From Wolbachia endosymbiont of Cimex lectularius (GTDB taxonomy: Bacteria > Pseudomonadota > Alphaproteobacteria > Rickettsiales > Anaplasmataceae), in contig NZ_AP013028.1 in NCBI RefSeq assembly GCF_000829315.1, positions 1,140,001 through 1,172,000 of the forward strand: 32,000 bases of DNA, given 5' to 3'. Each line of letters starts with the position of its first letter. Position 1 is the stretch's first letter. Of this stretch, positions 6,320 to 31,249 are shown in pieces. Below the pieces are notes generated by a model. That model was not told the DNA's origin, ran no database searches, and was given only the letters and a program-made list of their open reading frames with translations. A program made the position numbers and the translations under genes.

Positions 6320-7825
6320 TTATACAATCAATGAACTACCTGTTATTTCGTCTGGTTTTTTAATTCCAAGTAACTGTAAAATAGTGGGAGCGATATCAGA
6401 TAACTTTCCATCTCTCAGCTTCAGATTGTTATAAGAATCAAAGCATACGATGAATGGAACTGTATTCAAAGTATGTGCTGTATGGGGTGTGTTGTTTTCT
6501 TCATCGAACATGCACTCAACATTGCCGTGATCTGCCGTAACAATGAGCACAGTGTTACCTACTTCTTTAACAGCATCGAGCACTTTCATAAGGCAATTAT
6601 CTATAGCTAGCACAGCCTTCTGAGCTGCTTTCATGTTACCTGTATGACTTACCATATCAGGATTAGCGTAATTTATAACTATCAGTGCGAATTCTTGGGA
6701 ATAAATTTTTTCTACAAGCTTTTCTGTGAGCTCAAAGGCTGACATTTCAGGCTGCAAATCATAAGTTTTAACTTTTGGTGAGGGAATGAGAATTCTTTCT
6801 TCACCAGGGAAAGGTTCTTCTTTGCCGCAATTGAAAAAGAAGGTTACATGAGCGTATTTTTCAGTTTCAGCAATACGCAACTGTCGTAATTTATTATCCG
6901 CTATTGCCTGTCCTAGAGTGTTGGCAAAGGATCTAGAAGGAAAAAGACAGGGAATTTTTAAGCCCGCTTTGTATTGCATCATACTTAAAATTGAAGAGAA
7001 TTTTGCTACTTCAATGTAGTCTGTTTTACCAAGCAAAATACTCGCCAATTGTATCATTCGATCGGCACGAAAGTTAGCCAGTAACACCCCATCTTCTGGC
7101 TTTATACCTTGATAGTTACCTATTACTGCAGGTCTGATAAACTCATCAGTTATGTTGCTTTGGTAGTTACTATCAATCAACGACATCATACTATCGTGAC
7201 AAGGTGCCTTTGCAAATGCGATAGCTTCGTAAGCTTCAATTGTTCTTTCCCATCTGTTATCACGGTCCATAGCGTAATAACGTCCAGAAACAGTAGCAAT
7301 TCTTATGTCATTGCCCTTTATACTCTCTTCAAATTCTTGAATGCATTTTTTCCCCGAATTTGGCGATGTATCTCTGCCATCTAAAAATGCATGTATCACC
7401 ACCTTAATTCCGTGTTGCGATATTTTATTTGCTAGAGTTGAAATATGTTTTTGATGCGAATGAACACCACCGTCTGACACTAATCCCATTATATGGCATA
7501 CGCCACGCTTACTTTTTAAATTGCCAATAAAGTTTTGTAGATTTGCATTGCTTTCTATTGTTCCTATTTCTTGATTAATACGCTGTAGGCTTTGCATCAC
7601 TACTCTGCCACTGCCAATATTCATATGGCCAACCTCTGAATTGCCTATCTGACCATCTGGTAGCCCAACATCGGTTCCACAGGCAGATAAACTGCATTTT
7701 GGGTAATTAGAGCTAATATACTGCCAACAGGGTGGATTTGCATTGCTAATAGCATTATATTCACTATTCTCTATTCCATTTCCCCAACCATCTAATATAC
7801 ATAAAACAACCGATTTAAAGTTCAT
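6320..7825 (-). CDS. gpmI: 2,3-bisphosphoglycerate-independent phosphoglycerate mutase
   Basis: 501 aa. [26 protein letters not shown] and TADHGN motifs of cofactor-independent PGM. Confidence 0.92.
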
Positions 7826-7952
7826 ACGGTGCTAGAATTCTATAGATATAACACGATACCAAGAACAAACTCTTTCCACAATCTCAATATTGCGTGACAT
7901 AAAGTTTGTAAAGGAGGAATTATCAAATATCACATAGGTGTGTCAGAACAGC

Positions 7953-8509
7953 GTTAGATCTCTCGCATATCAAACCAGCTTTGGCATATGCGAAAAAACT
8001 ACTTGACAAATCTCACCAGCCCCATTATTATAAAGTTGGAGGTATTTAGTTATCTTCATCTGTGCAGATTAAACGACAAGAGTATTATGGTTAGCGTTTT
8101 ATGTTTAATTTTTTGCACTATGTGCACTTCATGTCTTTATTAATTTTACCTAGATTTCTAGGTTTTTCCCTATACAAGCTGAAACGCGCTTATAAGTCGT
8201 TTAAGACAGTATAGTACGCCAATTTGCAGGATTAGAGAGTGAGCAACTTCTACCACGGGGCTCTTTTGTCTTTTTTTCTGCTTAGTAAGTTTCTTAGCGC
8301 TTAAGCTAAGGGTCTGTTGCAGTTTAAAAGTCGCTAAATTGCAGCGTTTAAGACTTAAAAAAACGCCAATACTGAAAATAGACAATGACCAGGGCTTCTT
8401 TTGCTTTTTTTCAGCCTTGAAACTCGTTAGCGCCGCATTAGCTATATCACATGGGATTGTGCAATGGATGCAGCTTAACATAAAAAGTTTGACTTTTTGA
8501 AATTTTTGG
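7953..8509 (+). repeat. R element copy R1: non-coding repeat with an internal sigma70-type promoter and two ~147-bp tandem subunits; its 3' side abuts IS copy 1
   Basis: Alignable by eye with 14924-15425 (same orientation), 10771-11106 (inverted) and 29143-29187 plus 30050-30470. Shared blocks: ACTACTTGACAAAT, TATCTTCA.TCTGTGCAGAT, CATGTTTAATTTTTTGCACTATGTGCAC, CAAGCTGAAACGCGCTTATAAGTCGTTTAAGAC, AAAAACGCCAAT, GGGGCT.CTTTTG.CTTTTTTT. Subunits begin at 8198 and 8345 (CGTTTAAGAC). Confidence 0.8.
8003..8031 (+). promoter_or_regulatory. Predicted sigma70 promoter inside R1 (TTGACA-N17-TATTAT), firing toward IS copy 1
   Basis: TTGACA at 8003-8008, exactly 17 nt spacer, TATTAT at 8026-8031. The -35 box and spacing are the same in all four R copies. 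Confidence 0.6.
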
Positions 8510-8512
8510 TTA

Positions 8513-9373
8513 GAACCTGTTTAAAATCTTCGTAACAGGAGAGAAATGAAGGAGAGGACTATCATCTGTAAGCTAGTGTTGAGCTTCCGCTCGCAATTTT
8601 TCCACAATCGCCTGCACTTTTCTAACCAGGCAAAAGAGCGTTCAACAACCCATCTTTTTGGCAATACGACGAAAGTGTGTAACTCACTTCGCTTTATTAC
8701 TTCAACAGTCGCACCAATGATAGCTTTTATTTGTGTTGCAAAATTTTCTCCTGTGTAGCCAGCATCAACCAGTATGTTTTTAACTTCAGAGAGGTTTGCT
8801 TTAGCATTTTCGACCATTTTCACAGCACTGCTACGGTCAGTTGCTTCTGCCGTTGTTACATAAATTGCATGTGGCAAACCTTGTGTATCAACTGCAATAT
8901 GGCGCTTTATCCCTGAAATCTTTTTACCTGCATCATAGCCTTTTTTTTTCAGCAGTATCTGCGTTTTTAACGCTTTGAGAATCAATTATACAAAAGCTAG
9001 TTTTCTCTTTCCGACCATTGCTGATACGGACCTCTCCAACTAATTTTTTTTAAGACTAATTCCAACAAGCTTGGCTCTTCTCCATTCTTTTTACTCCACA
9101 CTCGAAAATAGTAATATACGCTTTCCCATCTTGGAAAACCCTTTGGTAACATCCTCCACTGACAACCACTTTTTAAGACGTACAACACCCCACAAAATAC
9201 GTCATACAAATCAAGTTTTCTTGGTTTTGTTTTCTGCTTGCTACTCTCCAAAATTGGCCTGATTTTTTCAAACTGCTCTTGACTTATATTACTTGGATAA
9301 CTTTTCTGCATAGACACCTCATTATTAATCTATGCTTACTTTACCTCACATTTCCAAGATTTTAAACAGGTTC
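8513..9373 (-). mobile_element. IS5-family insertion sequence, copy 1 (861 bp; ISWpi1-like by recollection)
   Basis: Perfect 18-bp terminal inverted repeats GAACCTGTTTAAAATCTT (8513-8530 and 9356-9373). Direct TTA duplication at 8510-8512 and 9374-9376. Internal DDE transposase frames. Confidence 0.92.
8521..9317 (-). pseudogene. IS5-family DDE transposase of copy 1; the orfB frame is additionally broken by a 1-nt expansion of a homopolymer
   Basis: orfA (8997..9317, 106 aa) is identical to the other copies. The coding-strand A-run at 8941-8949 is A9 here versus A8 in copies 2 and 3. The frame that encodes IIDSQSVKNADTAEKK therefore ends as ...AEKKRL-stop, separated from GYDAGKKISGIKRHIAVD. 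Confidence 0.75.
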
Positions 9374-9415
9374 TTACGCTCAGGTATAGTTTACTATTAA
9401 TAAGGGGTAGTTGCC

Positions 9416-10174
9416 ATGAATAGAGAGAAAGCTTTAGAAATTTTGGGAATAGCAAATGATCTTTCTAATCCTGACATTGTTTATCAAGTTAAACAACAAC
9501 TTGAGGGATTGCATAATGATAATACAGGGAAACTCTCAGAGAAAATAGAAGCATGCAAATTGCTTACTAAAAGTCAACCAGAGGTTTTCTCGAATTTTGT
9601 AATATCGGTTATCAAAGATAATAAGCCAGACTTTTTGGAGTTGTTATTAAAAACAGTAAAAAATGATGATAAGTTTAATTATTTGAATACAGAGAGCGTA
9701 GATGGTGAAAGACCATTAAGCTTTGCACTTGGAAATGATAAATGGAGTAAAGAAGTTAAAGTTGTAAATTTACTGTTGGAACATGGTGCTAGCGCTCATA
9801 CAAGAGGTAAGGGAGACAAGTCAGTATTCCATTATATTTTCGATGGTTATGGTGATTTTGATTGCTATGAAGGTATAGTAAAATCACTTCTGGATAAAGG
9901 TGTTAGTCCTAATATACAGGATGATCGAGGTAGGGCGCCGTTGCATTACTTGTGTGAACACGGCTATCGCAAGGGTAGTGTTGAAATTGTAAAATTGCTT
10001 TTGAGGAGAGGTGCTGATCCAGACCTGAAGGATAAAGATGGCAAGAAACCAGTAGATCTTGTTAATTCTGGCAGTGATGTTGGAGAAATGTTTGGTGCTA
10101 TTAACTATGAGAAAGCAGCTATACTCGGGATTGCTGCACTATTAGCTACGGTGTGCAGTATTGCTTTGGTTTAA
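9416..10174 (+). CDS. Ankyrin-repeat protein with a C-terminal hydrophobic segment
   Basis: 252 aa. ANK-like repeats (GERPLSFALGNDKWSKEVKVVNLLLEHGAS, RGRAPLHYLCEHGYRKGSVEIVKLLLRRGADPD, DGKKPVDLV). C-terminal AAILGIAALLATVCSIALV. Confidence 0.8.
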   Translation: MNREKALEILGIANDLSNPDIVYQVKQQLEGLHNDNTGKLSEKIEACKLLTKSQPEVFSNFVISVIKDNKPDFLELLLKTVKNDDKFNYLNTESVDGERPLSFALGNDKWSKEVKVVNLLLEHGASAHTRGKGDKSVFHYIFDGYGDFDCYEGIVKSLLDKGVSPNIQDDRGRAPLHYLCEHGYRKGSVEIVKLLLRRGADPDLKDKDGKKPVDLVNSGSDVGEMFGAINYEKAAILGIAALLATVCSIALV

Positions 10175-10367
10175 TCTAGCTATGAGCATTAGTATCAACA
10201 TAGCCCAAATTTCGTGTTTTGCTTTTGCAGCAGTTATGGCCACTGCTTTATTATGTTGTGCGTGTTACGCAATAAAAACTCTATTTTTTTCACCAGGACC
10301 ATCGTCTGAGTTTACTGAAGCTAGGGCAGAGTTTCTTAATAGTCAGAAAATCGCAGGAACAGTATAG
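10161..10367 (+). CDS. Small hydrophobic ORF, probably the frame-shifted second TM/tail of the preceding ankyrin gene
   Basis: Starts at TTG and overlaps the ANK stop by 14 nt. Encodes ISCFAFAAVMATALLCCACYAI, which matches the two-TM tail architecture of the ANK gene at 20271..20777. Confidence 0.4.
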   Translation: MLWFNLAMSISINIAQISCFAFAAVMATALLCCACYAIKTLFFSPGPSSEFTEARAEFLNSQKIAGTV

Positions 10368-10388
10368 GAGTAATTTGTACCCAACGTC

Positions 10389-10616
10389 CACAACTGTACG
10401 AATATTGTGATTTGAGCCTACCACTAGGGTGTCATGCAAGTAGCTGGCACTGGCATCCAGGAATTTTATTAAGTTGGTGAGTATAAAAGTAGCTGTTTTA
10501 TGTTAAAATACGACGTTTTGATGATTATAGAAAGGCTGGATCCCAGTGTCGGAGCACTGGGATGACACCGTCTGTTACGCAAATTACCTGCTAATTGCAA
10601 TGTTCGTACAGTTGTG
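10389..10616. mobile_element. MITE-like non-autonomous element (228 bp) with terminal inverted repeats and a target-site duplication
   Basis: Left end CACAACTGTACGAATATTG. The right end reverse-complements to CACAACTGTACGAACATTG (18/19). Direct repeat CCAACGTC at 10381-10388 and 10617-10624. The interior is an extended imperfect palindrome with no ORF. Confidence 0.65.
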
Positions 10617-10632
10617 CCAACGTCCAAGTAGC

Positions 10633-10765
10633 TTAGCTGTACGAGGGTTGTAATATGTAAACGATGTCGTTCCAGCGCGTGACGCTGGAATCTAGGAATT
10701 TTATCGAGTAGGTGAGCATAAAAGTTATGTTAAAATGCACCATTTTTATGGAAAGCTGGATCCCA
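10633..10765. repeat. Second, partial copy of the MITE-like/palindromic element
   Basis: GCTGTACGAGGGTTGTAAT resembles the left TIR. CTAGGAATTTTATCGAGTAGGTGAGCATAAAAGT...TATGTTAAAATGC...GAAAGCTGGATCCCAG parallels 10458-10545. Contains the palindrome TCCAGCGCGTGACGCTGGA. Confidence 0.55.
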
Positions 10766-10770
10766 GATAC

Positions 10771-11106
10771 AAGGCAAAAGAAGCCCCGTGGTAGCTAGTT
10801 ATTCACTATCTATCTTATAACATTGGCGTTTTTGATGTCTTAAACGACTTATAAGCGCGTTTCAGCTTGTATAGGTAAAAAAACAGAAGTTTTAAAAAGA
10901 CATGCAATGCACATAGTGCGAAAAATTAAACATGAGACGGCAAATATGCTAAGTTTTTTTGTCATTTAATCTGCACAGACTGAAGATAAATAATAACTCC
11001 AGTCTCATTATAAGGGGGTTGAAGGAATTTGTCAAGTAGTTTTTTTTGTTTCCATTGAATATATGCTTGGCGCTGCCAAAACTGATTTGTTATGCGAGAG
11101 ATCTAG
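10771..11106 (-). repeat. R element copy R2 (inverted orientation, one subunit only)
   Basis: The reverse complement aligns with R1, R3 and R4 from the head (TAGATCTCTCGCATAACAAATCAG...) through the promoter, the GCACTATGTGCA block and CAAGCTGAAACGCGCTTATAAGTCGTTTAAGAC to GGGGCTTCTTTTGCC. Confidence 0.8.
11007..11035 (-). promoter_or_regulatory. Predicted sigma70 promoter inside R2 with full consensus (TTGACA-N17-TATAAT), firing leftward, away from the folate operon
   Basis: The minus strand reads TTGACA (11035-11030), then 17 nt AATTCCTTCAACCCCCT, then TATAAT (11012-11007). Confidence 0.6.
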
Positions 11107-11127
11107 TGAAAATCGGCATAATATCTC

Positions 11128-11156
11128 TTGACATCTAATAAGTCTATGAATAGTAT
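11128..11156 (+). promoter_or_regulatory. Candidate promoter of the folate operon (TTGACA-N17-TAGTAT)
   Basis: TTGACA at 11128-11133, 17-nt spacer, TAGTAT at 11151-11156. AAGGAG at 11178-11183 lies 8 nt before the ATG at 11192. Confidence 0.45.
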
Positions 11157-11191
11157 GAAATAGTTTTGTGTTAACTTAAGGAGTTATTATA

Positions 11192-11848
11192 ATGTTTATT
11201 CAATTACTTAATAGAGAACTAGATAGTTTGCATTTATTAAAACATCAGTTTTACCAATCATGGAATGAAGGAAATTTGAGTCTTGAAGCCCTACAAATTT
11301 ACGCTAAGGAATATTATCATCATGTTGCCGCATTTCCTCGTTATATTAGTGGTATACATTCTTTGTGCCCAAATCTGAAAATGCGACAAGTTTTGCTTGG
11401 TAATTTAATAGAAGAAGAACAAGGCGATGAAAACCATCCAGAGTTATGGCAACGTTTTGCTGAAGGGCTTGGTGTCTCACGATCCGATCTTCGTGAAGAT
11501 GCACAAATTAACGAGACACAAGAATTAGTTGATGGTTACTTTGATATTGTACGATCAGGCTTTGCAATGGGTCTTGGAGCTCTTTATGCTTATGAACGTC
11601 AAACTCCAGAGGTTTCTAAGTCTAAAATTGAAGGTCTGAAAAAGCATTATTCAATAGATGATGAGCGCTCTCTCCAATTTTTTACTGTTCACATGGATGC
11701 TGATGAATGGCACTCTGAGGAGTGTGCAAACCTTATTGCGGATTTAAATGAAGAAGAACAAGGGAAAGTTATGCAAGGTGCTAAAAAAGGAGCAAAGCTT
11801 TTATGGGGTTTTCTTGATGGAATGATGAACGCATATGCACATTGCTGA
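11192..11848 (+). CDS. CADD / PqqC-like haem-oxygenase-fold di-metal protein (CT610/NE1434-type pABA synthase candidate)
   Basis: 218 aa. LLKHQFYQSWNEGNLSLEALQIYAKEYYHHVAAFPRYIS, NLIEEEQGDENHPELWQRFAEGLG and DADEWHSEE resemble the TENA/THI-4/PqqC-CADD family. It is the first gene of a folate operon. Confidence 0.75.
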   Translation: MFIQLLNRELDSLHLLKHQFYQSWNEGNLSLEALQIYAKEYYHHVAAFPRYISGIHSLCPNLKMRQVLLGNLIEEEQGDENHPELWQRFAEGLGVSRSDLREDAQINETQELVDGYFDIVRSGFAMGLGALYAYERQTPEVSKSKIEGLKKHYSIDDERSLQFFTVHMDADEWHSEECANLIADLNEEEQGKVMQGAKKGAKLLWGFLDGMMNAYAHC

Positions 11849-11940
11849 GGGGTTTTCATCAATAAAGGGGGAAAATTTCTCTTGAGTAATTTGGTAAACT
11901 TCAGAAACATGTGGGTTTTTGTAAGCTAGAGAGTATAAAG

Positions 11941-12354
11941 ATGGGACTAGGTACAAAACTGTTATGTAACCTCCTTATCCAGGATTTACGGCTTTGGGTT
12001 CATTTAGGCTGTAGTACAGAAGAGAAGTTTCATTCCCAATTAGTGAGTATTAATGTTGATTTTACCTTTAAGTCTCCTCCTGTAGGGCTTATAACTGATC
12101 GGCTTGAAGACACTATCTGCTATCTGGAGGTAGTGCAGAGTATACAATCGCTTGCTCGAAGCAAGCAATTCAATTTAATCGAGCGTTTCACTCATGATGT
12201 ATATGTAACCATTAGTAACCTTTTGATGCAGAAAAGGCATATTATTTCTTCTATAAGAGTGACTACTCACAAAGTTGCACCACCCGTTCCCGATGTACAT
12301 GGGGGTGTTCTCTTCACCTATTACAATGCACTGCAAGAACAGGAAGATAACTAA
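11941..12354 (+). CDS. folB: Dihydroneopterin aldolase/epimerase (FolB/FolX family)
   Basis: The ORF track begins at GTG 11911; ATG 11941 gives a 137-aa protein of typical FolB size. IQDLRLWVHLGCSTEEK, ICYLEVVQSI and LIERFTHDV match the FolB pattern. The stop overlaps the next start (TAATG). Confidence 0.75.
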   Translation: MGLGTKLLCNLLIQDLRLWVHLGCSTEEKFHSQLVSINVDFTFKSPPVGLITDRLEDTICYLEVVQSIQSLARSKQFNLIERFTHDVYVTISNLLMQKRHIISSIRVTTHKVAPPVPDVHGGVLFTYYNALQEQEDN

Positions 12355-13652
12355 TGATTTATATTTCTATTGGCTCAAATATAGGAAATCGCCTTTCTAA
12401 TTTACAAAAGGCTGCTCAGTTACTAAAGGAGCGCTATTTTAAAGATCTAAAATCTTCGATTGTCTTAGAAACTAAGGCTATTTTACCAAATGGTGCTCCA
12501 ATTGAGTGGGACAAGCCATTTTTTAACATGGTTGTGTATGGAAATTGCTCTGTTTCTCCTGAAGAGTTATTAAAGGGCCTAAAACAAATCGAATGTGACA
12601 TTGGTCGTCCACAGATTCATGAAAAGTGGGCACCTCGTATTATCGACTTGGATATTTTATTATGGGATGATTTGACACTCGATACACCCTACCTTAAGGT
12701 TCCTCACCCAGAATTGTTGAGCAGACCATTTTTGCTTCACTTGATGGCAATGCTCAGCCCCATGGGTGATATTCCAACGACCAACAAAACGTTTGGTACT
12801 GTTGCTCACAACACTCCTAGCGTTCAAGACTGCTTTTTAAAGAGTTTTACGCTTTCACCAGAGCTTGTGGGAATTGTCAACGTCACTCCTGATTCATTTT
12901 CAGATGGTGGTCTCTATTATGAGACAGATCAAGCAACTAAGCAGGCATTGCAACTGGTATCAGATGGTGCAAGCGTAGTTGATCTTGGTGCTCAATCAAC
13001 AAGGCCTAGATCTTCGATGCAAACCCCAGAGGAGGAATATGCACGTTTAAAACCAGTACTTGATAATCTTAGTCATTATATGAAAGCTGGCGATATTAAA
13101 GTCAGTATTGATAGTTTCTGGCCGGATGTTATTTTAAAAGCTTTGGAATATTACAACATTGCTTGGATAAACGATGTTAAAGGAGATCTAGATGATAATA
13201 CCTTAAAAGCAATTGCTAGCGGTGAGTGTAGCATCGTTATTATGCATTCACTTTCCATACCACCACATAAAGACAACATTATTCCAGGTAACACTGACCC
13301 CATCAATACCATAAATCACTGGGCAGAGAAAAGCGTTGATAGATTACTAGCTCTAGGTTTTAATAAAAGCTCAATAATTATTGATCCTGGTATAGGTTTT
13401 GGAAAATCCCTATATCAGAATATCTGGATTTTGCGCAATATAGAAGCATTGCAAAGTTTCGGCTGCAAGGTTCTAGTGGGTCATTCTAGAAAGTCATTTA
13501 TTTCTTCTTTTTCTTCAGAATCTGCCTTTAACCGAGATTTAGAAACAATTTCTATGTCATCTGTATTACACAATAAGGTTGATTTCCTTCGAGTGCATAA
13601 TGTGCGCGATCACATGCGATTTTTTGTAGCCCAAGCTGCCTTACAGGGATGA
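12354..13652 (+). CDS. folKP: Bifunctional HPPK / dihydropteroate synthase (FolK-FolP fusion)
   Basis: 432 aa. The N-terminal half carries HPPK motifs (IGSNIGNR, PRIIDLDILLWD, VPHPEL). The C-terminal half carries DHPS motifs (GIVNVTPDSFSDGG, DLGAQSTRP, IIIDPGIGFGK, VGHSRKSF). Confidence 0.9.
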   Translation: MIYISIGSNIGNRLSNLQKAAQLLKERYFKDLKSSIVLETKAILPNGAPIEWDKPFFNMVVYGNCSVSPEELLKGLKQIECDIGRPQIHEKWAPRIIDLDILLWDDLTLDTPYLKVPHPELLSRPFLLHLMAMLSPMGDIPTTNKTFGTVAHNTPSVQDCFLKSFTLSPELVGIVNVTPDSFSDGGLYYETDQATKQALQLVSDGASVVDLGAQSTRPRSSMQTPEEEYARLKPVLDNLSHYMKAGDIKVSIDSFWPDVILKALEYYNIAWINDVKGDLDDNTLKAIASGECSIVIMHSLSIPPHKDNIIPGNTDPINTINHWAEKSVDRLLALGFNKSSIIIDPGIGFGKSLYQNIWILRNIEALQSFGCKVLVGHSRKSFISSFSSESAFNRDLETISMSSVLHNKVDFLRVHNVRDHMRFFVAQAALQG

Positions 13653-14143
13653 TGATTATCGGAGTTATGGCCGTTGATCCAAACGGGGTAATTGGAATAA
13701 ATAATGGATTGCCCTGGCATTATCCAAGTGAGCTGGAGCATTTTCGCCAGGTGACTGACAAACAAGTTATAGTTATGGGAAGAAAGACATTTGAAACCAT
13801 GCCTCAAAGCATATTGAAGGATCGTGTTCCTGTTGTTTTTTCTCGTAACAAGCTAAGTTTGTGTTTTAATAGAGGTATAAAATGTACTGTTGTTTCTTCT
13901 ATGCAAGAATTTCTATCAATTCAGAATAGTTGGAATTACTCCAAAATCTTCATGGTTGGTGGAGCACAGATAGCGCACCTTTTTTTAGAGCATAATCTAA
14001 TCTCAGAATTTATCATAACAGAAATCCACAAACCTTATAAAGGTGAAGTATATTTCAACTTAGCACTCCTTGATGGGTGGAATAAAACTATTCTCACCGA
14101 AACAAAAGATTATACTATATGCAGGCTAATATATGCAAGTTGA
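13649..14143 (+). CDS. folA: Dihydrofolate reductase
   Basis: 164 aa. GLPWHYPSELEHFRQVT, VIVMGRKTFE and MVGGAQI motifs. ATGA overlap with folKP. Confidence 0.88.
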   Translation: MMIIGVMAVDPNGVIGINNGLPWHYPSELEHFRQVTDKQVIVMGRKTFETMPQSILKDRVPVVFSRNKLSLCFNRGIKCTVVSSMQEFLSIQNSWNYSKIFMVGGAQIAHLFLEHNLISEFIITEIHKPYKGEVYFNLALLDGWNKTILTETKDYTICRLIYAS

Positions 14144-14876
14144 AGCAATTTACACCCACCGCGTTGAATGCGGTGAAACATTAGAGAAGATTCTTGATCG
14201 CTATGTTTCAAAATTATTGAGGGAGGAGGTTGTGCTTGCTATCACATCAAAAATCATTTCCGTTTGCCAAAAGCAAGTAGTTCACAAAACTGCCTGCTCT
14301 AAAGAAGAGCTGGTTAAAAGAGAAGCTGATGCGGTTGTTGATGTAGATTGCAATCCACATGGCATCTATTTGACAATTAAAGATGATATTTTAATTCCAT
14401 CTGCCGGCATTGACGAATCAAACGGTGATGAGGTGTATATTCTATATCCAAAAGATGTTCAGAAAACAGCTATATCAGTATGGAACTACCTAAGGACAAA
14501 ATTCTGCATAAAGCATCTTGGTATTTTGATTACAGATAGCAATATAGCACCTATGCGCCTTGGGGTTACAGGAATTGCTCTTGGTTGGTGTGGATTTGAG
14601 CAGCTTTATTCCTATGTAGGCAAGCCAGATCTTTATAGTAGGCCACTCCAGGTAACACAAATCAATCTTCTTGATGCGCTGGCAGCATCCGCTGTTTTAG
14701 TCATGGGAGAAGGGGCAGAACAAACGCCAATGGCAGTCATTAGAGATGTACCAAAAATCCGCTTCCTTACTCGTCCACCGACTATAGAAGAAGAGAGAAG
14801 TGTTAAGATATCGGTGGAAGAGGACCTTTATTCTCCTCTACTCATGAAAGCCCGATGGTTGAAGAACGTGGGATAA
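14133..14876 (+). CDS. CofE-like (F420-0:gamma-glutamyl ligase family, COG1478) protein; candidate non-canonical folylpolyglutamate/dihydrofolate synthase (FolC2, CT611-type)
   Basis: 247 aa. ITSKIISVCQ, LIPSAGIDESNG, ILITDSN and GIALGWCGF resemble the CofE family. Overlaps folA by 11 nt as the last gene of the operon. Confidence 0.7.
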   Translation: MQVEAIYTHRVECGETLEKILDRYVSKLLREEVVLAITSKIISVCQKQVVHKTACSKEELVKREADAVVDVDCNPHGIYLTIKDDILIPSAGIDESNGDEVYILYPKDVQKTAISVWNYLRTKFCIKHLGILITDSNIAPMRLGVTGIALGWCGFEQLYSYVGKPDLYSRPLQVTQINLLDALAASAVLVMGEGAEQTPMAVIRDVPKIRFLTRPPTIEEERSVKISVEEDLYSPLLMKARWLKNVG

Positions 14877-14923
14877 ATTTATAAAGCTAGAGCATGCAGC
14901 CTAACTTTTCCTTTTATATCATA

Positions 14924-15425
14924 CGTTAGATCTCTTGCACAGCAAACCAATTTTGACACGCCATAAAACAAAAAAAACTACTTGACAAATTCTTTCAACC
15001 CCCTCATAATGAGATTGAGGCTATTATTTATCTTCAGTCTGTGCAGATAAAACGACAAAAAACTCAATGTATTTGGCGTCTCATGTTTAATTTTTTGCAC
15101 TATGTGCACTCCATGTCTTTATAAAACTTCTAGGTTTTTACCTAATATAAGCTAAAATGCGCTTGCTAAAGCATTTAAGACAATAAAAAACGCCAATTTA
15201 AAAGATAGATAGTGGATAACTAGCTAGCGGGGTTTCTTTTGCCTTTTGTCTGTTTAGTAAATTTCTTAACGTTTAAATTTAGATCAGTTGCGGTTTAAAA
15301 GCAGCTAGATTAGACGTTTAGAATAAAAAAACGCCAATTTATAAAGTTAATATAAATAACTAGCCACCAACGGGGCTCCTTTTGCTTTTTTTTCTATTTA
15401 ATAAATTTCTTAAATATTTATAACT
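14924..15425 (+). repeat. R element copy R3 (two ~141-bp subunits), directly upstream of the terminase start
   Basis: Aligns with R1, R2 and R4. Subunits begin near 15171 and 15313. A short palindromic element (15436-15490) follows and runs into the terminase RBS. Confidence 0.8.
14982..15010 (+). promoter_or_regulatory. Predicted sigma70 promoter inside R3 (TTGACA-N17-CATAAT)
   Basis: TTGACA at 14982-14987, 17-nt spacer AATTCTTTCAACCCCCT, CATAAT at 15005-15010. Confidence 0.55.
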
Positions 15426-15570
15426 AAAGTAGTATCTTGGATTCCAGTGTCCGCTACTTGGATGACAAGAAAAGGCTACTTGGATAACAGGAGGCTAATA
15501 TGGAAAACATAAACTTTCTAAAATTCATTGAGTTATGCTTTAAAACAGTGATGCCGGGGTGTGAGTATAA

Positions 15571-16430
15571 GAACCTGTTTAAAATCTTCGTAACAGGAGA
15601 GAAATGAAGGAGAGGACTATCATCTGTAAGCTAGTGTTGAGCTTCCGCTCGCAATTTTTCCACAATCGCCTGCACTTTTCTAACCAGGCAAAAGAGCGTT
15701 CAACAACCCATCTTTTTGGCAATACGACGAAAGTGTGTAACTCACTTCGCTTTATTACTTCAACAGTCGCACCAATGATAGCTTTTATTTGTGTTGCAAA
15801 ATTTTCTCCTGTGTAGCCAGCATCAACCAGTATGTTTTTAACTTCAGAGAGGTTTGCTTTAGCATTTTCGACCATTTTCACAGCACTGCTACGGTCAGTT
15901 GCTTCTGCCGTTGTTACATAAATTGCATGTGGCAAACCTTGTGTATCAACTGCAATATGGCGCTTTATCCCTGAAATCTTTTTACCTGCATCATAGCCTT
16001 TTTTTTCAGCAGTATCTGCGTTTTTAACGCTTTGAGAATCAATTATACAAAAGCTAGTTTTCTCTTTCCGACCATTGCTGATACGGACCTCTCCAACTAA
16101 TTTTTTTTAAGACTAATTCCAACAAGCTTGGCTCTTCTCCATTCTTTTTACTCCACACTCGAAAATAGTAATATACGCTTTCCCATCTTGGAAAACCCTT
16201 TGGTAACATCCTCCACTGACAACCACTTTTTAAGACGTACAACACCCCACAAAATACGTCATACAAATCAAGTTTTCTTGGTTTTGTTTTCTGCTTGCTA
16301 CTCTCCAAAATTGGCCTGATTTTTTCAAACTGCTCTTGACTTATATTACTTGGATAACTTTTCTGCATAGACACCTCATTATTAATCTATGCTTACTTTA
16401 CCTCACATTTCCAAGATTTTAAACAGGTTC
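15571..16430 (-). mobile_element. IS5-family insertion sequence, copy 2 (860 bp), inserted in codon 24 of the terminase gene
   Basis: The same 18-bp terminal inverted repeats. TAA duplication at 15568-15570 and 16431-16433. Confidence 0.92.
15579..16374 (-). CDS. IS5-family DDE transposase (orfA 16054..16374 plus orfB frame to 15579); the fusion needs a +1 change of frame at an A8 run
   Basis: orfA reads ...LVLKKISWRG...EREN-stop. The +1 frame from the A8 run (T8 on the plus strand, 16101-16108) reads LVGEVRISNGRKEKTSFCIIDSQSVKNADTAEKKGYDAGKKISGIKRHIAVD...LVDAGY...VVERSFAWL with no stop to 15579. This gives the full D, D, E triad regions. Confidence 0.8.
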
Positions 16431-17080
16431 TAACGACTATCAGTATGTAAAAGTCATAGCAGACAGGCTTGAAGCAGCAAATGTTGGCAAAATGAGGCGA
16501 ATAATATTCAATATGCCTCCGCGCTCAATGAAATCCCTGTGCGTCAGTGTTGCATGGCCGCATGGATACTTGGCAATCAGCTAACCGCGAGAATAATAGT
16601 TGCAAGCTATTCTCAGCGGCTGAGCGAAAAACACTCGCTCGATACAAGGTGCGTGATGCAATCGGATTGGTATAGAGAGCTGTTTCCAGAGGTAGAGCTA
16701 CCCACAGAACAAAACACTAAATACAAATTTCAAACAGTGCAGAGAGGATACAGAATCGCAACATCTGTTGGTGGAACATTAACCGGCGAAGGTGGTGATT
16801 TCATTATTGCGGATGATCCACTGAGCTCCACTCAAGCTTTGAGTGAAACTCTTAGAAAACGTGCTACAAACTGGTTCGACCAGACTTTAGTAAGCAGATT
16901 CAACAATAGAAAAAAAGGAGTCATCGTTCTTGTGATGCACAGACTTCACTTGGAAGACTTAACTGGGCACCTCCTCTCCAAACCGAAAATCATATGGCAC
17001 CATATTAGTTTACCAATGATATATGAAAATAAGGAGATCATTTATTCAATCAAAAAACCAGCGCCTACTTTTCTTGTTCC

Positions 17081-17148
17081 GGTCATCCAAGTAACTAAAG
17101 ATGGGCACACCAGCAATAAACCAGTATCAGCTACTTACATGACACCAC
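17081..17148. repeat. Short palindromic element embedded in frame inside the terminase reading frame
   Basis: GGTCATCCAAGTAAC ... CAGCTACTTACATGACACCAC. The second arm matches AGCTACTTACATGACACCAC at 30565-30584 over 20 nt. Both arms are inverted versions of the GGTGTCATGCAAGTAGCTGG motif at 10428-10447. Confidence 0.55.
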
Positions 17149-17812
17149 CTGCAAGGATATACTCAAGAGAAGAAGGTCAGCCGCTATACCCCCTAGATGG
17201 AGGAAGGGAAGAAGTTGAGATGATAAAGGCTGAACTTGGAAGCTATGCTTTTGCTGCGCAATATCAACAAAACCCTCTGCCGCTTTCAAGTGGTATAATC
17301 AAGCTAGAGTGGCTGAAGCGCTATAGAAATTTTCCTGATGACCTCTCGCATGTAACCTAGAGCTGGGATACTGAGGTTTCAACGAGCAACTCTAGCAACT
17401 TCAGCGTCTGCACCACTTTGGCAAAAGTGGGCAATAAGTTTTATTTACTCGATGTATATCGTGCAAAACTTGAGTATCCAAAACTTAAAGAGCAAGTTCT
17501 GTCACTAGCTGCAAGATGGACACCACACGCAGTTTTAATTGAAGCAAAAACAAGCGGTCAGCAATTGGTACAAGAGCTGAAGGCAAACAGTGATTTACCC
17601 GTTATTGAAATAGTACCGCATGATGACAAATTCGCTCGATTCCATCAGATTGTTCCGATTATAGAGTCTGGAAAAGTTTTTCTGCCGCACCAAGCGATAT
17701 GGCTCAATGATTTTGAGTATGAAATTTTAATGTTCCCAGAAGCACATCACAATGACCAAGTCGACAGCACCGTGCAATATCTGCAGTGGATGAGAGAAAG
17801 TACCTCCAGGGT

Positions 17813-17871
17813 CGCAACTATACGAACATTGTGATTTGAGCCTGCCAGGAGGATGTCATCCAAGTAGTTGG
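17813..17871. repeat. Left-end fragment of the MITE-like element, supplying the last codons and the stop of the terminase ORF
   Basis: CGCAACTATACGAACATTGTGATTTGAGCCTGCCAGGAGGATGTCATCCAAGTAGTTGG parallels 10389-10447 (CACAACTGTACGAATATTGTGATTTGAGCCTACCACTAGGGTGTCATGCAAGTAGCTGG). Confidence 0.6.
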
Positions 17872-17873
17872 TA

Positions 17874-19262
17874 TTAACATTTACCAATTGGATAATCACC
17901 AGTGAAACAAGCATCACAGTATTGCGGTGCTATGTTATTGCGCTTCTCTTCCTTAACAGCCTGATATAGCCCATCAATACTTAGGAAGGTCAAACTATTC
18001 ACTCCTATACTTGCCTTTATTTCCTCTATGGATTGATTTGCAGCAATTAAATCCTTGCGCTCTGGCGTGTCGATTCCATAAAAGCAAGAGTATTTGATTG
18101 GTGGACTTGAAATTTTTAAGTGAATTTCTCTTACTCCTGCATCTTTTAGCATAACTATTATGCTTCTGAGTGTACTGCCACGTACTATACTGTCATCTAT
18201 TAAAACTATGTTTTTACCCTTTAGAATGTGCTTATTAGCGTTGAATTTTAACTTTATTCTGACTTTACGTACTTCAGCGGTTGGTTGTATAAAAGTTCTT
18301 CCTATATAATGATTACGAATTATTCCCAGTTCCATAGGTAACCCTGAATGCTTTGCATATCCAATGGCTGCAGGTATTCCAGAATCAGGTATTGGTACAA
18401 TCATATCCACATTGTTTTTTGCTGGACTCTCCTCTGCAAGCGTTTTCCCTATTTCTTTTCTCATATCGTATATAGACCTACCTTCCATTATGCTATCTGG
18501 TCTTGAGAAATAAACGTATTCAAAAATACAAAAGCTCGATTTTTGCTGCGCAAAAGGAAATGCTGAAGTTAGGTGGCCATTACGATCAATAGTGACTAAT
18601 TCACTTGGTTCTATTTCTCTAATAAACTCTGCATTTACTATATCAAAAGCACAAGTCTCAGATGCAAGCACGTAAGAGCCGTTTAACTTTCCTAAAGCAA
18701 GGGGTCTGATTCCTGCTGGATCGCGCACTCCGATCACTACTTCTTGGTTAATTGCAACAAAGGAATAAGCGCCTTGTATCTGCTTTAATGAACATATAAA
18801 ACTCTCTAGAAAGCTATCTTTTGTATTGGTTTCTACTAAACGTACTACCACTTCTGTATCGATATCCGATTGAAAAACGCACCCCTGTTTAATTAATTGC
18901 TCGCGTATTGGAAAAATATTAATTAAATTACCATTATGTGCTATAGCAAAATCTCCAAACTTACTGCTTTTGCCAAGCATGGGTTGTGCTCCGACATTAC
19001 TGCCACTTGTTGAGTATCGAACGTGGCCTATTGCATAATCTCCAGGCAAGGATTTCTTTATTGCATCTACGTCATCAAACACACTGCTCACTTGACCTTG
19101 AAAATGGTAAGAATGCAACTTATCGTTATAACTTGTCACTACACCAAAAGACTCCTGACCTCTATGTTGCAAAGCATGAAGACCTAATATGGAGTCAAAA
19201 GCAGCGTCTTTATTGTAGCTTATACCAAATACTCCGCACTCTTCGTGCATTCCATCAAGCAT
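17874..19262 (-). CDS. purF: Amidophosphoribosyltransferase
   Basis: 462 aa. N-terminal ECGVFGI (catalytic Cys after a short leader), a PRPP-binding VLIDDSIVRGST loop, and Cys-rich C-terminal ligands (CFYGIDTP, YCDACFTGDYP). Confidence 0.92.
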   Translation of the reverse strand: MLDGMHEECGVFGISYNKDAAFDSILGLHALQHRGQESFGVVTSYNDKLHSYHFQGQVSSVFDDVDAIKKSLPGDYAIGHVRYSTSGSNVGAQPMLGKSSKFGDFAIAHNGNLINIFPIREQLIKQGCVFQSDIDTEVVVRLVETNTKDSFLESFICSLKQIQGAYSFVAINQEVVIGVRDPAGIRPLALGKLNGSYVLASETCAFDIVNAEFIREIEPSELVTIDRNGHLTSAFPFAQQKSSFCIFEYVYFSRPDSIMEGRSIYDMRKEIGKTLAEESPAKNNVDMIVPIPDSGIPAAIGYAKHSGLPMELGIIRNHYIGRTFIQPTAEVRKVRIKLKFNANKHILKGKNIVLIDDSIVRGSTLRSIIVMLKDAGVREIHLKISSPPIKYSCFYGIDTPERKDLIAANQSIEEIKASIGVNSLTFLSIDGLYQAVKEEKRNNIAPQYCDACFTGDYPIGKC

Positions 19263-29039: not shown

Positions 29040-29142
29040 AGAAGTATAAGTTACTTACATTTGCAAGCAACTTATACTGATACCAACTCCACTACACAGA
29101 AGGCGGACAGACGTAAAGTGGAAAAAAGCTATAACGTCATCC

Positions 29143-29187
29143 AACAGAAACAAAAAAACTACTTGACAAATCTCACCAACCCTCTTA
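29143..29187 (+). repeat. R element copy R4, 5' part (promoter -35 and spacer), separated from the rest by IS copy 3
   Basis: AAACAAAAAAACTACTTGACAAATCTCACCAACCCTCTTA. TTGACA at 29163-29168 and a 17-nt spacer. The IS starts after the first two bases (TA) of the expected -10 box. Confidence 0.75.
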
Positions 29188-29990
29188 GAACCTGTTTAAA
29201 ATCTTCGTAACAGAGAGAAATGAAGGAGAGGACTATCATCTGTAAGCTAGTGTTGAGCTTCCGCTCGCAATTTTTCCACAATCGCCTGCACTTTTCTAAC
29301 CAGGCAAAAGAGCGTTCAACAACCCATCTTTTTGGCAATACGACGAAAGTGTGTAACTCACTTCGCTTTATTACTTCAACAGTCGCACCAATGATAGCTT
29401 TTATTTGTGTTGCAAAATTTTCTCCTGTGTAGCCAGCATCAACCAGTATGTTTTTAACTTCAGAGAGGTTTGCTTTAGCATTTTCGACCATTTTCACAGC
29501 ACTGCTACGGTCAGTTGCTTCTGCCGTTGTTACATAAATTGCATGTGGCAAACCTTGTGTATCAACTGCAATATGGCGCTTTATCCCTGAAATCTTTTTA
29601 CCTGCATCATAGCCTTTTTTTTCAGCAGTATCTGCGTTTTTAACGCTTTGAGAATCAATTATACAAAAGCTAGTTTTCTCTTTCCGACCATTGCTGATAC
29701 GGACCTCTCCAACTAATTTTTTTTAAGACTAATTCCAACAAGCTTGGCTCTTCTCCATTCTTTTTACTCCACACTCGAAAATAGTAATATACGCTTTCCC
29801 ATCTTGGAAAACCCTTTGGTAACATCCTCCACTGACAACCACTTTTTAAGACGTACAACACCCCACAAAATACGTCATACAAATCAAGTTTTCTTGGTTT
29901 TGTTTTCTGCTTGCTACTCTCCAAAATTGGCCTGATTTTTTCAAACTGCTCTTGACTTATATTACTTGGATAACTTTTCTGCATAGACAC
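29159..29990 (-). CDS. IS5-family DDE transposase of copy 3 (orfA 29670..29990 plus orfB frame), with an altered C-terminus from a 1-nt deletion
   Basis: Identical to copy 2, except that CGTAACAGGAGAG is CGTAACAGAGAG at about 29206-29217. The last residues LLLRRF-stop become CYEDFKQVLRGLVRFVK-stop, and the ORF runs out through the inverted repeat into flanking DNA (stop at 29159). Confidence 0.65.
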
Positions 29991-30046
29991 CTCATTATTA
30001 ATCTATGCTTACTTTACCTCACATTTCCAAGATTTTAAACAGGTTC
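29188..30046 (-). mobile_element. IS5-family insertion sequence, copy 3 (859 bp), inserted into the -10 hexamer of the R4 promoter
   Basis: The same 18-bp terminal inverted repeats. TTA duplication at 29185-29187 and 30047-30049. Joining the flanks restores TTGACA-N17-TATAAT. Confidence 0.92.
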
Positions 30047-30049
30047 TTA

Positions 30050-30470
30050 TAATGATACTAAAGCTATTTGTTTATCTTCGCAATCTGTGCAGGTTAAAGA
30101 CAAAAAACTTAGGGTATTTGGCGTCTCATGTTTAAATTTTTGCACTATGTGCACCTCACGTCTTTTTAAAACTTCTGGTTTTTACCTATACAAGCTGAAA
30201 CGCGCTTATAAGTCGTTTAAGACAGTATAGAACGTCAAATAGACAAGGGAGAATTTGAATACTAGCTGCCCTAGAGTTTTTTTGCCTTTTTTTCCGCTCA
30301 GTAAAATTCTTAACGTTTACAGTTTTGGTTAGTTGCATTTAAAAGTAGCTGAATCGTAGCGCTGAGAATAAAAACGCCGATATTTGAGGTACATATAAAT
30401 AATTAGCCACCAACGGGGCTTCTTTTGCTTTTTTCTCCATTTGGTAAGTTTCTTAAATATTAAAGCAATT
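30050..30470 (+). repeat. R element copy R4, 3' part (conserved blocks plus two subunits)
   Basis: TAATGATACTAAAG...TATCTTCGCAATCTGTGCAGGT...CATGTTTAAATTTTTGCACTATGTGCAC...CAAGCTGAAACGCGCTTATAAGTCGTTTAAGAC...GGGGCTTCTTTTGCTTTTTTC aligns with R1-R3. Confidence 0.8.
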
Positions 30471-30499
30471 CATGAACGAACATTTATTTTTACAACAAG

Positions 30500-30585
30500 T
30501 GGTGTCATTCCAGCGTCACGCGCTGGAATGACAAAAAAAGGAGGCGCTGGGATGACAAGAAAAGGAGCTACTTACATGACACCAC
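30500..30585. repeat. Cluster of short palindromic elements
   Basis: Perfect 12-bp-arm palindrome GTCATTCCAGCG-TCACG-CGCTGGAATGAC (30504-30532), followed by GCGCTGGGATGACAAGAAAAGGAGCTACTTACATGACACC. Related to 15436-15490, 10535-10569 and 10668-10691. Confidence 0.7.
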
Positions 30586-30695: not shown

Positions 30696-31154
30696 TCATC
30701 CTTCGCAAAAAGCGGGAAGGAAGGCTAAAAGACAGCTAACCATAACATTGGAAAGACATCTAGCTGGTAGGCCTCTCAATAAATCAATTATTTCCTTATT
30801 CTTAGCAAAAGAAAGCGGTTTTTTACCATTATTATCTTTTATGTTAGTTTTAGCTTCTGCTTCGAGAAGAAGTTCAACCATATCAGTGTTATTGAAACAA
30901 GTAGCATAGTGCAATACAGTTCTCCCCAGATTGTCTTGGGCATCAATGTCTGCTCCTGCTCTGAGAAGAAGTTCAACCATATCAGTATCATTGAAATAAG
31001 CAGCATAATGTAAAGCAGTTCTTTTCATATCATCTTTGGCATTAATGTCTGTATGCTTGCCCATTAGACGCTCATGGCCTACTGGTCCAACTTCATTATT
31101 ACGGTACTCCTTTAAAATTTTATATAAATCATAACCTCTGGTACCATTTAGCAT
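30696..31154 (-). CDS. Ankyrin-repeat protein with a C-terminal hydrophobic tail
   Basis: The ORF track starts at TTG 31187. ATG 31154 (MLNGTRGY...) lies 7 nt after GGAGG. Two near-identical ANK repeats (RTALHYAAYFNDTDMVELLLRAGADIDAQD and RTVLHYATCFNNTDMVELLLEAEAKTNIKD). Tail VMVSCLLAFLPAF. Confidence 0.8.
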   Translation of the reverse strand: MLNGTRGYDLYKILKEYRNNEVGPVGHERLMGKHTDINAKDDMKRTALHYAAYFNDTDMVELLLRAGADIDAQDNLGRTVLHYATCFNNTDMVELLLEAEAKTNIKDNNGKKPLSFAKNKEIIDLLRGLPARCLSNVMVSCLLAFLPAFCEG

Positions 31155-31249
31155 AATTTTACCTCCATATACACTAACGATTGACAAGTATTTTTATAAA
31201 GCTCAACATATTGCATTTATAGAAGAGTTGCAAGATATCTTTTAAGCAT

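Follow-up and report, generated by a model that had tools for sequence, protein, structure and literature searches.

Within 32 kb of the Wolbachia genome analysed here (the whole stretch is called the window hereafter), a non-coding repeat, R, occurs several times, each time built around what looks like a complete sigma70 promoter. This raises the question of what kind of element R is, and of whether its promoter is a working part of it or a leftover. The original prediction, made from the sequence of the window, was that R is either a multicopy non-coding RNA or a mobile promoter cassette. Mobility signatures, a family-wide distribution, recombination between copies and site-specific conservation of the promoter hexamers are established for R. 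Our preferred reading, which we regard as likely, is that R is a Wolbachia family of non-autonomous DDE transposons (MITEs) with an inward sigma70 promoter that is predicted to be active and to be kept by selection.

The window has four R copies, essentially at the coordinates first noted and with small boundary shifts (Table 1). A four-way alignment gives the same block order in all of them, and the conserved blocks listed at the outset are present, in that order, in every copy. One correction concerns copy 1, drawn originally as 7953-8509: the part up to 8412 stood, and 8413-8509 proved to be a tail outside the family consensus, reaching up to an IS at 8513. The leftmost block of R (TAGATCTCTCGCATA...) had been taken for diverged flank and is actually a transposon terminal inverted repeat (TIR). 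The left TIR is kept in copies 1-3 and the right TIR is absent from all four copies; the window copies are therefore old, immobile relics. The single subunit of copy 2 is truncated within its T-run, and the subunits of copy 3 end in S-blocks, with no right TIR after them; the flanks of copy 3 resemble those of two other loci, L080 on the left and L052 on the right. Copy 4 begins with an alternative "class B" block (TACCAACTCCACTACACAG...) instead of the TIR, has its -35 at 29163-29168 and is split within the promoter by an IS, around which TTA is duplicated (29185-29187 and 30047-30049). Removal of this IS and of one TTA restores TTGACA-17-TATAAT, so that the expected sigma70 promoter with a 17-nt spacer is found in all four copies. 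The promoters of copies 1, 2 and 3 are the top three sigma70 matches within 7800-16600 (11-12 of 12 positions), a region where promoter-like sites occur at chance frequency (25 found vs 26.2 +/- 4.9 expected).

Table 1. Coordinates of the R copies, their parts and the interrupting IS in the window.
Feature	Position	Strand	Description
R copy 1	~7955-8412	+	One-ended relic MITE: left TIR, promoter, head, two subunits
Copy 1, left TIR	7956-7971	+	AGATCTCTCGCATATC; family consensus AGACCTCTTGCATAAC
Copy 1, promoter	8003-8031	+	TTGACA-17 nt-TATTAT, 11/12 match; predicted start ~8038
Copy 1, head block	8100-8127	+	(T/C)ATGTTTAATTTTTTGCACTATGTGCAC, holds dyad TGCAC-TAT-GTGCA
Copy 1, T-block 1	8256-8277	+	GGGGCTCTTTTGTCTTTTTTT; U-rich end of subunit 1
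Copy 1, T-block 2	8391-8412	+	Right TIR missing after it; adjoins right TIR in intact elements
R copy 2	10766-11105	-	Left TIR 11089-11104, promoter, head, one subunit
Copy 2, promoter	11007-11035	-	TTGACA-17 nt-TATAAT, 12/12 match; predicted start ~11000
R copy 3	14927-15413	+	Left TIR 14928-14943, promoter, head, two subunits
Copy 3, promoter	14982-15010	+	TTGACA-17 nt-CATAAT, 11/12 match; predicted start ~15017
R copy 4, 5' part	29081-29187	+	Class B left block, A-tract, -35, spacer, first two -10 bases
IS splitting copy 4 promoter	29188-30046	-	859 bp, IS5-family, NCBIfam transpos_IS5_3 type
R copy 4, 3' part	30050-30456	+	Remaining -10 (TAAT), head, two subunits, S-block end

The IS that splits copy 4 has identical copies at 8513-9373 and 15571-16430. 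A general link between the IS of the window and R was considered and rejected, being unsupported elsewhere (8 IS ends near 198 R heads). The neighbours of R in the window include housekeeping genes (iPGM, PqqC-like, folB, folK-folP, DHFR, F420-ligase-like and MPG glycosylase), an ankyrin gene and a terminase fragment, and two R copies bracket the folate operon. Exact matches to the iPGM and ankyrin proteins were found in assemblies belonging to one project with the cimicid (bed-bug group) Wolbachia representatives C61_2 and C44_Paracimex, which places the window in a wCle-like strain.

Intact copies in other Wolbachia measure 455-599 bp, with one complete copy of 819 bp. Twelve complete copies with TIRs of 15-16 nt were identified, bounded by AGACCTCTTGCATAAC ... 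GTTATGCAAGAGGTCT, and in these the last U-rich block directly adjoins the right TIR. The order of parts in an intact element is left TIR, A-tract, inward near-consensus sigma70 promoter, head, junction block, subunit(s) and right TIR; the A-tract and promoter lie ~30 nt inside the left TIR, the head is ~190 nt, and each subunit of ~145 bp closes with a U-rich block (GGGGYTTCTTTTGCC-T7). The one or two tandem subunits predicted from the window hold across the family, 25 copies having one, 29 having two and none more. With this ceiling and the fixed order, R is a defined unit that contains an internal duplication, and the idea of an expandable satellite was discarded. Neither a transposase nor any other coding capacity was found in R: no reading frame is conserved and the longest ORFs are no better than those of shuffled sequences, in agreement with the original description of the repeat as non-coding. 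One candidate in the head block, a 13-aa ORF (MFNF(L/S)HYVH...), was rejected, as its variation extends to every codon position and divergent subfamilies lack it.

The insertion sites carry the signatures of transposition. TA stands next to the left end in 11 and next to the right end in 10 of the 12 complete copies. Where AWT is found on both sides, the 3-bp A(A/T)T flanks are matching direct repeats in six of seven copies, a duplication that is weak evidence by itself, being short and AT-rich (one-sided p ~0.06). At each empty site, A(A/T)T occurs once. The empty site of locus L010 reads TAATAC-AAT-ACACAAAATT, and the filled orthologous site of L056 reads TAATAC[AAT]AGACCTCTTGTATAAC...GCTATATAAGAGGTCC[AAT]AACAAAATT. 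The same pattern is seen between L030, which is filled, and L039 and L054, which are empty, and a third comparison (L106 filled, L094 empty) has a less clean junction. A 3-bp A(A/T)T duplication around an element with termini A...T fits both clean empty sites. An IS630/Tc1-mariner-type MITE with a TA-only duplication was rejected because both of these sites need three further duplicated bases and because the related IS, described below, codes for an IS5-type and not an IS630-type transposase. In addition, there are mini-elements of 126-134 bp with the ends of R, an unrelated interior and no promoter. The suggestion that R is mobile in origin was thus correct as far as it went; the TIRs, the target-site duplication, the filled and empty sites and the relation to the IS5 family had not been recognised.

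The distribution of R was surveyed by a genome scan anchored on an internal block and not on the promoter, so that promoter conservation is not built into the sample. The scan gave 111 loci, all in Wolbachia or Rickettsiales MAGs, covering ~12 species-level Wolbachia genomes with 1 to ~35 copies each, and insertion polymorphism between strains was found. The same search pattern gave 41 R loci in host-associated metagenomes. There was no match to R in the phage and plasmid collections, which indicates that the deposited WO phages and plasmids do not include R. The upstream flanks of R are unique or common to only two or three genomes. The possibility that R is the end of a larger element was set aside in view of these unique flanks and because the sole large downstream cluster consists of IS and palindromic repeats. 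Many R copies are located at contig ends, as would be expected of dispersed repeats.

The candidate relative of R is an IS5-family IS of 884-905 bp with HTH_Tnp_4 and DDE_Tnp_4 (NCBIfam transpos_IS5_4; for example L013:791-1695). Its termini (AGACTTCTTTCAAAAT) begin AGACYTCTT, the L013 copy is surrounded by a perfect AAT duplication, and the IS also occurs in wCanCry, the genome where intact R copies are most numerous. R and this IS have in common the 3-bp A(A/T)T duplication, the genomes in which they are found and 12 of 16 TIR positions; they differ in that R has no transposase and an interior unrelated to the IS. These likenesses suggest that R was probably mobilised in trans by an IS5-family transposase (transpos_IS5_4), inserting with a 3-bp A(A/T)T duplication. 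No IS with exactly the TIRs of R was found in ~1.08 Mb of sequence.

The R family is also a mosaic. In front of the promoter stands one of several left modules, namely the TIR, the ~70-nt class B block, palindromic repeats or, at two loci, the 3' end of a tRNA, and all of them converge ~25 nt before the -35. On the right, 11 copies end in the TIR and 62 in an S-block without TIR, and a recognisable TIR is kept in only about one quarter of R copies. The copies recombine: the haplotypes of the spacer and of the downstream part often differ between "orthologous" copies, and the crossovers fall around the invariant A-tract/-35 block. Because the core from the promoter to the T-block also stands behind other left modules, it could be a captured cargo of the MITE and not an original part of it.

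With anchors placed outside the promoter, 82 of 89 copies have TTGACA and 86 of 89 have a spacer of exactly 17 nt. Conservation over 126 distinct copies is 94-100% at the -35 positions, and the six -10 positions are conserved at T.91, A.90, T.78, N.57, A.92 and T.90, giving the pattern TA(T/C)NAT. The spacer is hypervariable (mean conservation.69) and C-rich, with 53% GC vs 31% in the flanks. A functional-looking promoter, that is, a -35 matching at least 5/6 plus TAnnnT at 17 nt, was found in 102 of the 126 copies. The promoter block is intact in 110/126 and the left TIR recognisable in 35/126, a contrast that is partly inflated by the copies with other left modules.

For a comparison of rates, copies from different genomes with an orthologous flank in common were grouped, which gave 22 clusters, and the minimum number of changes per site was counted. 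The -35 hexamer changed least (0.038 changes per site), followed by -10 positions 1, 2, 5 and 6 (0.10), the orthologous flank (0.142), the transcript body (0.175), the spacer (0.39), -10 position 3 (0.41) and -10 position 4 (0.64). The key promoter positions together show 0.064 changes per site, significantly fewer than the spacer (OR 0.10, p ~1e-20), the transcript body (OR 0.32, p = 3e-6) and the orthologous flank (OR 0.41, p = 0.001), although, owing to exchange between copies, part of what these clusters record is divergence among subfamilies. The claim that the promoter is better kept than the surrounding repeat therefore survived a test set in advance and applied over many genomic copies. 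The accompanying statement that the remaining sequence has diverged between copies holds in that the hexamers are the slowest-evolving part of R, but several downstream blocks are ~90% conserved too. At the level of sequence, the profile fits RNAP contacts: hexamers and spacer length are kept, and spacer sequence is free.

This profile suggests that the R promoter is active and selectively kept. The predicted transcript would be non-coding and weakly structured, with a length of ~235 nt if it reaches T-block 1 or ~380 nt if it reaches T-block 2, and would end in or near these U-rich blocks. Look-ups in run-level assemblies gave genomic contigs and no R transcript. By analogy with QMITE1 of Coxiella, selection may see either the RNA or the act of transcription. 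A stronger version, which we consider doubtful, holds that the core is a selected RNA gene riding on MITE ends, which stays active through the function of its transcript after the vehicle has died. One possibility, raised by the complementarity between the T-blocks and an A-rich stretch of the IS5_4 element, its orfA/orfB frameshift window, is that such a transcript might damp this putative partner IS; another is that it might act on host or bacterial targets, as has been proposed for other small RNAs of Wolbachia. Among the Wolbachia RNAs already named, ncrwmel01/02 and the WsnRNAs, are single-copy loci of wMel. If the core were such a gene, the discrete, C-rich hypervariable spacer haplotypes would be promoter-strength alleles shuffled by recombination. 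Trans-antisense pairing with transposase mRNAs was searched for and rejected, the only matches being low-complexity T-run/A-run stretches of 12-14 nt, within the range of shuffled sequences.

A different view of the conserved promoter is that R represents dispersed genes for a structured regulatory non-coding RNA, in which the fold is selected and the mobility features are incidental. The promoter itself, a 5' stem-loop predicted at the transcript start in single copies, the U-rich blocks ~235 and 380 nt downstream and the ~90% conserved internal blocks all agree with it. We nevertheless consider this view unlikely, because the RNA part of the original prediction found no backing in a consensus fold, significant covariation, an Rfam match or a canonical terminator. 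RNAalifold on 74 non-redundant copies gave only -4.2 kcal/mol in sense and -1.9 kcal/mol in antisense, single-copy folds are unremarkable (z = -1.3 and -0.9), and the only pair that looks compensatory, located in the 5' hairpin, does not reach significance (OR 1.96, p = 0.17). Rfam returned 0 hits at gathering score, the best permissive match having E = 3.2, far below gathering, and no tRNA or tmRNA was found in R. The terminator scan gave no stem followed by a T-run at any T-block, its only call inside R being an internal hairpin at 8148-8163 in copy 1. Moreover, the TIRs, the target-site duplication and the empty sites mark R as a transposon.

It could also be argued that R is inert, decaying debris, whose promoter-like site is a leftover that appears conserved through youth or gene conversion. 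Between the window and the syntenic Nx346 contig, two R cores differ by 9.5% and 16.3% and fourfold-degenerate sites by 10.7%, which shows that the element as a whole is not slow-evolving and diverges at about the neutral rate; the mosaic copies with crossovers around the invariant -35 block and the missing right ends of the window copies point in the same direction. Against this, within the -10 only positions 3 and 4 vary freely, the other four (1, 2, 5 and 6) being kept, the 17-base spacer is the most variable stretch of R and its length is nonetheless fixed, and the TIRs decay while the promoter does not. Gene-conversion tracts would cover hexamers and spacer alike and cannot yield such a pattern; judged from the sequences, neither youth nor gene conversion accounts for it, and we hold the debris explanation to be quite improbable. 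Finally, R as a mobile promoter cassette that switches on or boosts the gene downstream of its insertion is very improbable: the inward promoter is predicted to be strong, the T-blocks are not canonical terminators, so that read-out is possible, and the downstream ORF is co-oriented in 21 of the 60 copies with an identifiable one, but convergent ORFs are commoner (39), in 80 of 140 copies a repeat or contig end follows, R is typically found ~33 nt behind the stop codon of an upstream gene in the same orientation, and in the window copies 2 and 3 face away from the folate operon, copy 1 reads into an IS in antisense and copy 4 is disrupted.

If the promoters of this MITE family fire, these Wolbachia genomes would have tens of unannotated extra transcription units, a plausible source of orphan starts and small RNAs in Wolbachia transcriptomics. 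Repeat-derived reads map to more than one place, and such signals are therefore usually thrown out. R copies are also recombination substrates that break synteny. The family offers a test case for whether the host preserves a promoter in a dead transposon or the promoter is a mere leftover, and strains that differ in having the orthologous site filled or empty are already available.

MITEs that affect transcription are known from other bacteria. The Correia repeat-enclosed elements of Neisseria are abundant MITEs of ~100-155 bp that duplicate TA, affect transcription and carry or create promoters, which are located at or near the ends and fire outward. In R, by contrast, a complete internal promoter fires inward across ~400 nt. 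In Wolbachia, the one MITE with a name, wDam-MITE-1 of the Simulium symbiont (217 nt, 24-nt ITRs and a 9-nt duplication; PMC5447182) belongs to a different family and is structurally unrelated to R. A prokaryote-wide MITE census places Wolbachia at the highest MITE density (PMC11602168), and the accessible text of that census describes neither R nor its promoter; our own search found no published description of the R family. The BrickBuilt MITE of Porphyromonas gingivalis resembles R in being intergenic and in having small inverted-repeat ends, internal tandem repeats and promoter elements; it differs in its variable 23-nt minisatellite and bidirectional promoter activity (Klein et al. 2015, PMC4596501), where R has a fixed one or two subunits of 145 bp and a single inward promoter.

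The promoter-bearing MITE is a kind already known from QMITE1 of Coxiella burnetii, and the R family adds to that kind; the principle is unchanged by R, the precedent having been set in Coxiella. According to Wachter et al. (2018, PMC5896051), QMITE1 is 300-400 bp long, is flanked by 2-3-nt repeats, occurs in ~50 copies and has sigma70 promoters; it is transcribed, the sRNAs CbsR3 and CbsR13 having been shown experimentally, and is suggested to give rise to sRNAs and to influence nearby genes. On that description, R resembles QMITE1 as a MITE of a few hundred bp with tens of copies and short direct repeats in an obligate intracellular bacterium, in carrying a sigma70 promoter, and in that the element is conserved and linked between strains. 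For QMITE1 transcription has been shown by experiment, for R it is predicted; R is longer (455-599 bp), has the internal ~145-bp duplication and is intergenic, whereas QMITE1, in the same account, often overlaps ORFs.

The 17-nt spacer of the R promoter is rich in C (44%), and its rate of divergence exceeds that of every other part of this MITE family by more than twofold. Its sequences fall into a few discrete and highly divergent haplotypes, for example CCTTCGCCGTTACCCTT, ATTCTTTCAACCCCCTT and ATCTCACCAAACCCATT, which are shuffled relative to the remainder of the element. Downstream of the promoter, the subfamily to which copy 1 belongs has gained an additional insertion, and this forms a perfect hairpin with T5 after it (ACCTAGATTTCTAGGT TTTTC), the sole terminator-like call within R. 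Other subfamilies have TAGGT-TTTT-ACCTA at the equivalent position.

The left ends of R are associated with several other modules. Mini-MITEs of 55-134 bp share the terminal ~25 nt of R, with an unrelated interior that lacks the promoter, and in one locus (L040) a left part of the mini-MITE type lies immediately 5' of an R core. The 'class B' left block (TACCAATTCCCAYTACAYAG...) seems to be the end of a distinct repeat family; it has seven R-free occurrences (L009, L021, L029, L037, L046 and L075). In two genomes, a tRNA gene has its 3' end ~35 nt before the start of the R core (L067, minus strand, ~5266; L095, plus strand, ~5047).

Coordinates of R-associated features (window positions unless a locus from another Wolbachia genome is named)
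Feature	Position	Strand	Remarks
17-nt promoter spacers (examples)	8009-8025; 11013-11029; 14988-15004
Hairpin + T5	8148-8163		in copy 1; terminator-like call
Mini-MITEs	L007 4099-4224; L017 4525-4650; L154 14418-14551; L052 7584-7638
'Class B' left block	29081-29150
transpos_IS5_3-type IS, full copies	8513-9373; 15571-16430; 29188-30046		TTA/TAA duplications
transpos_IS5_3-type IS, fourth copy	1-82	opposite	partial, cut by window edge
Folate operon	within 10766-15413		PqqC-like gene, folB, folKP, DHFR, F420-ligase-like gene

Two types of IS5-family element adjoin R. The transpos_IS5_3 type, of ~860 bp, has three full copies in the window that are 100% identical to each other; all three sit inside an R copy or no more than ~150 nt from one, with the transposase running antisense to the R promoter, and the insertion at 29188-30046 has destroyed the promoter of copy 4. 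In other genomes this association was not general. The second type, IS5_4, abuts or interrupts an R-type terminal inverted repeat in wCanCry, the genome with most intact R copies (L013 1679-1713, ...GTTATGCAAGATAAATAAT/AGACTTC...). The T-blocks that end the R subunits (TTTTGCC-T7; for instance, 15372-15393 in the window) are complementary to positions ~437-480 of IS5_4, a low-complexity match within the range of shuffled sequences. The complementary region, the A-rich orfA/orfB overlap (AGAAAAAAAGGCA), resembles a frameshift window.

Other repeats are present in the window. GC-rich short palindromic repeats (e.g. GTCATTCCAGCGTCACGCGCTGGAATGAC) are grouped beside R copies at 10400-10760, 15430-15500 and 30490-30570, and a second repeat, CAACTGTACGAA..TTGTGATTTGAGCC, is also found beside them (10391-10465 and 17815-17889). 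Two 99-nt tandem repeats, 81% identical, occupy 30853-31050 within a minus-strand ORF (30696-31187), and because of this period the ORF is suggested to encode ankyrin-type 33-residue repeats.

On a larger scale, the inverted copies 2 and 3 (together spanning 10766-15413) bracket the folate operon, each firing outward from it. Both the syntenic contig Nx346 (L062) and sister strains keep this layout at ~91% identity. The flanks of copy 3 (14315-17837) are orthologous to two different wTis contigs, L080 on the left and L052 on the right, a split orthology that apparently reflects rearrangement by R-R recombination.
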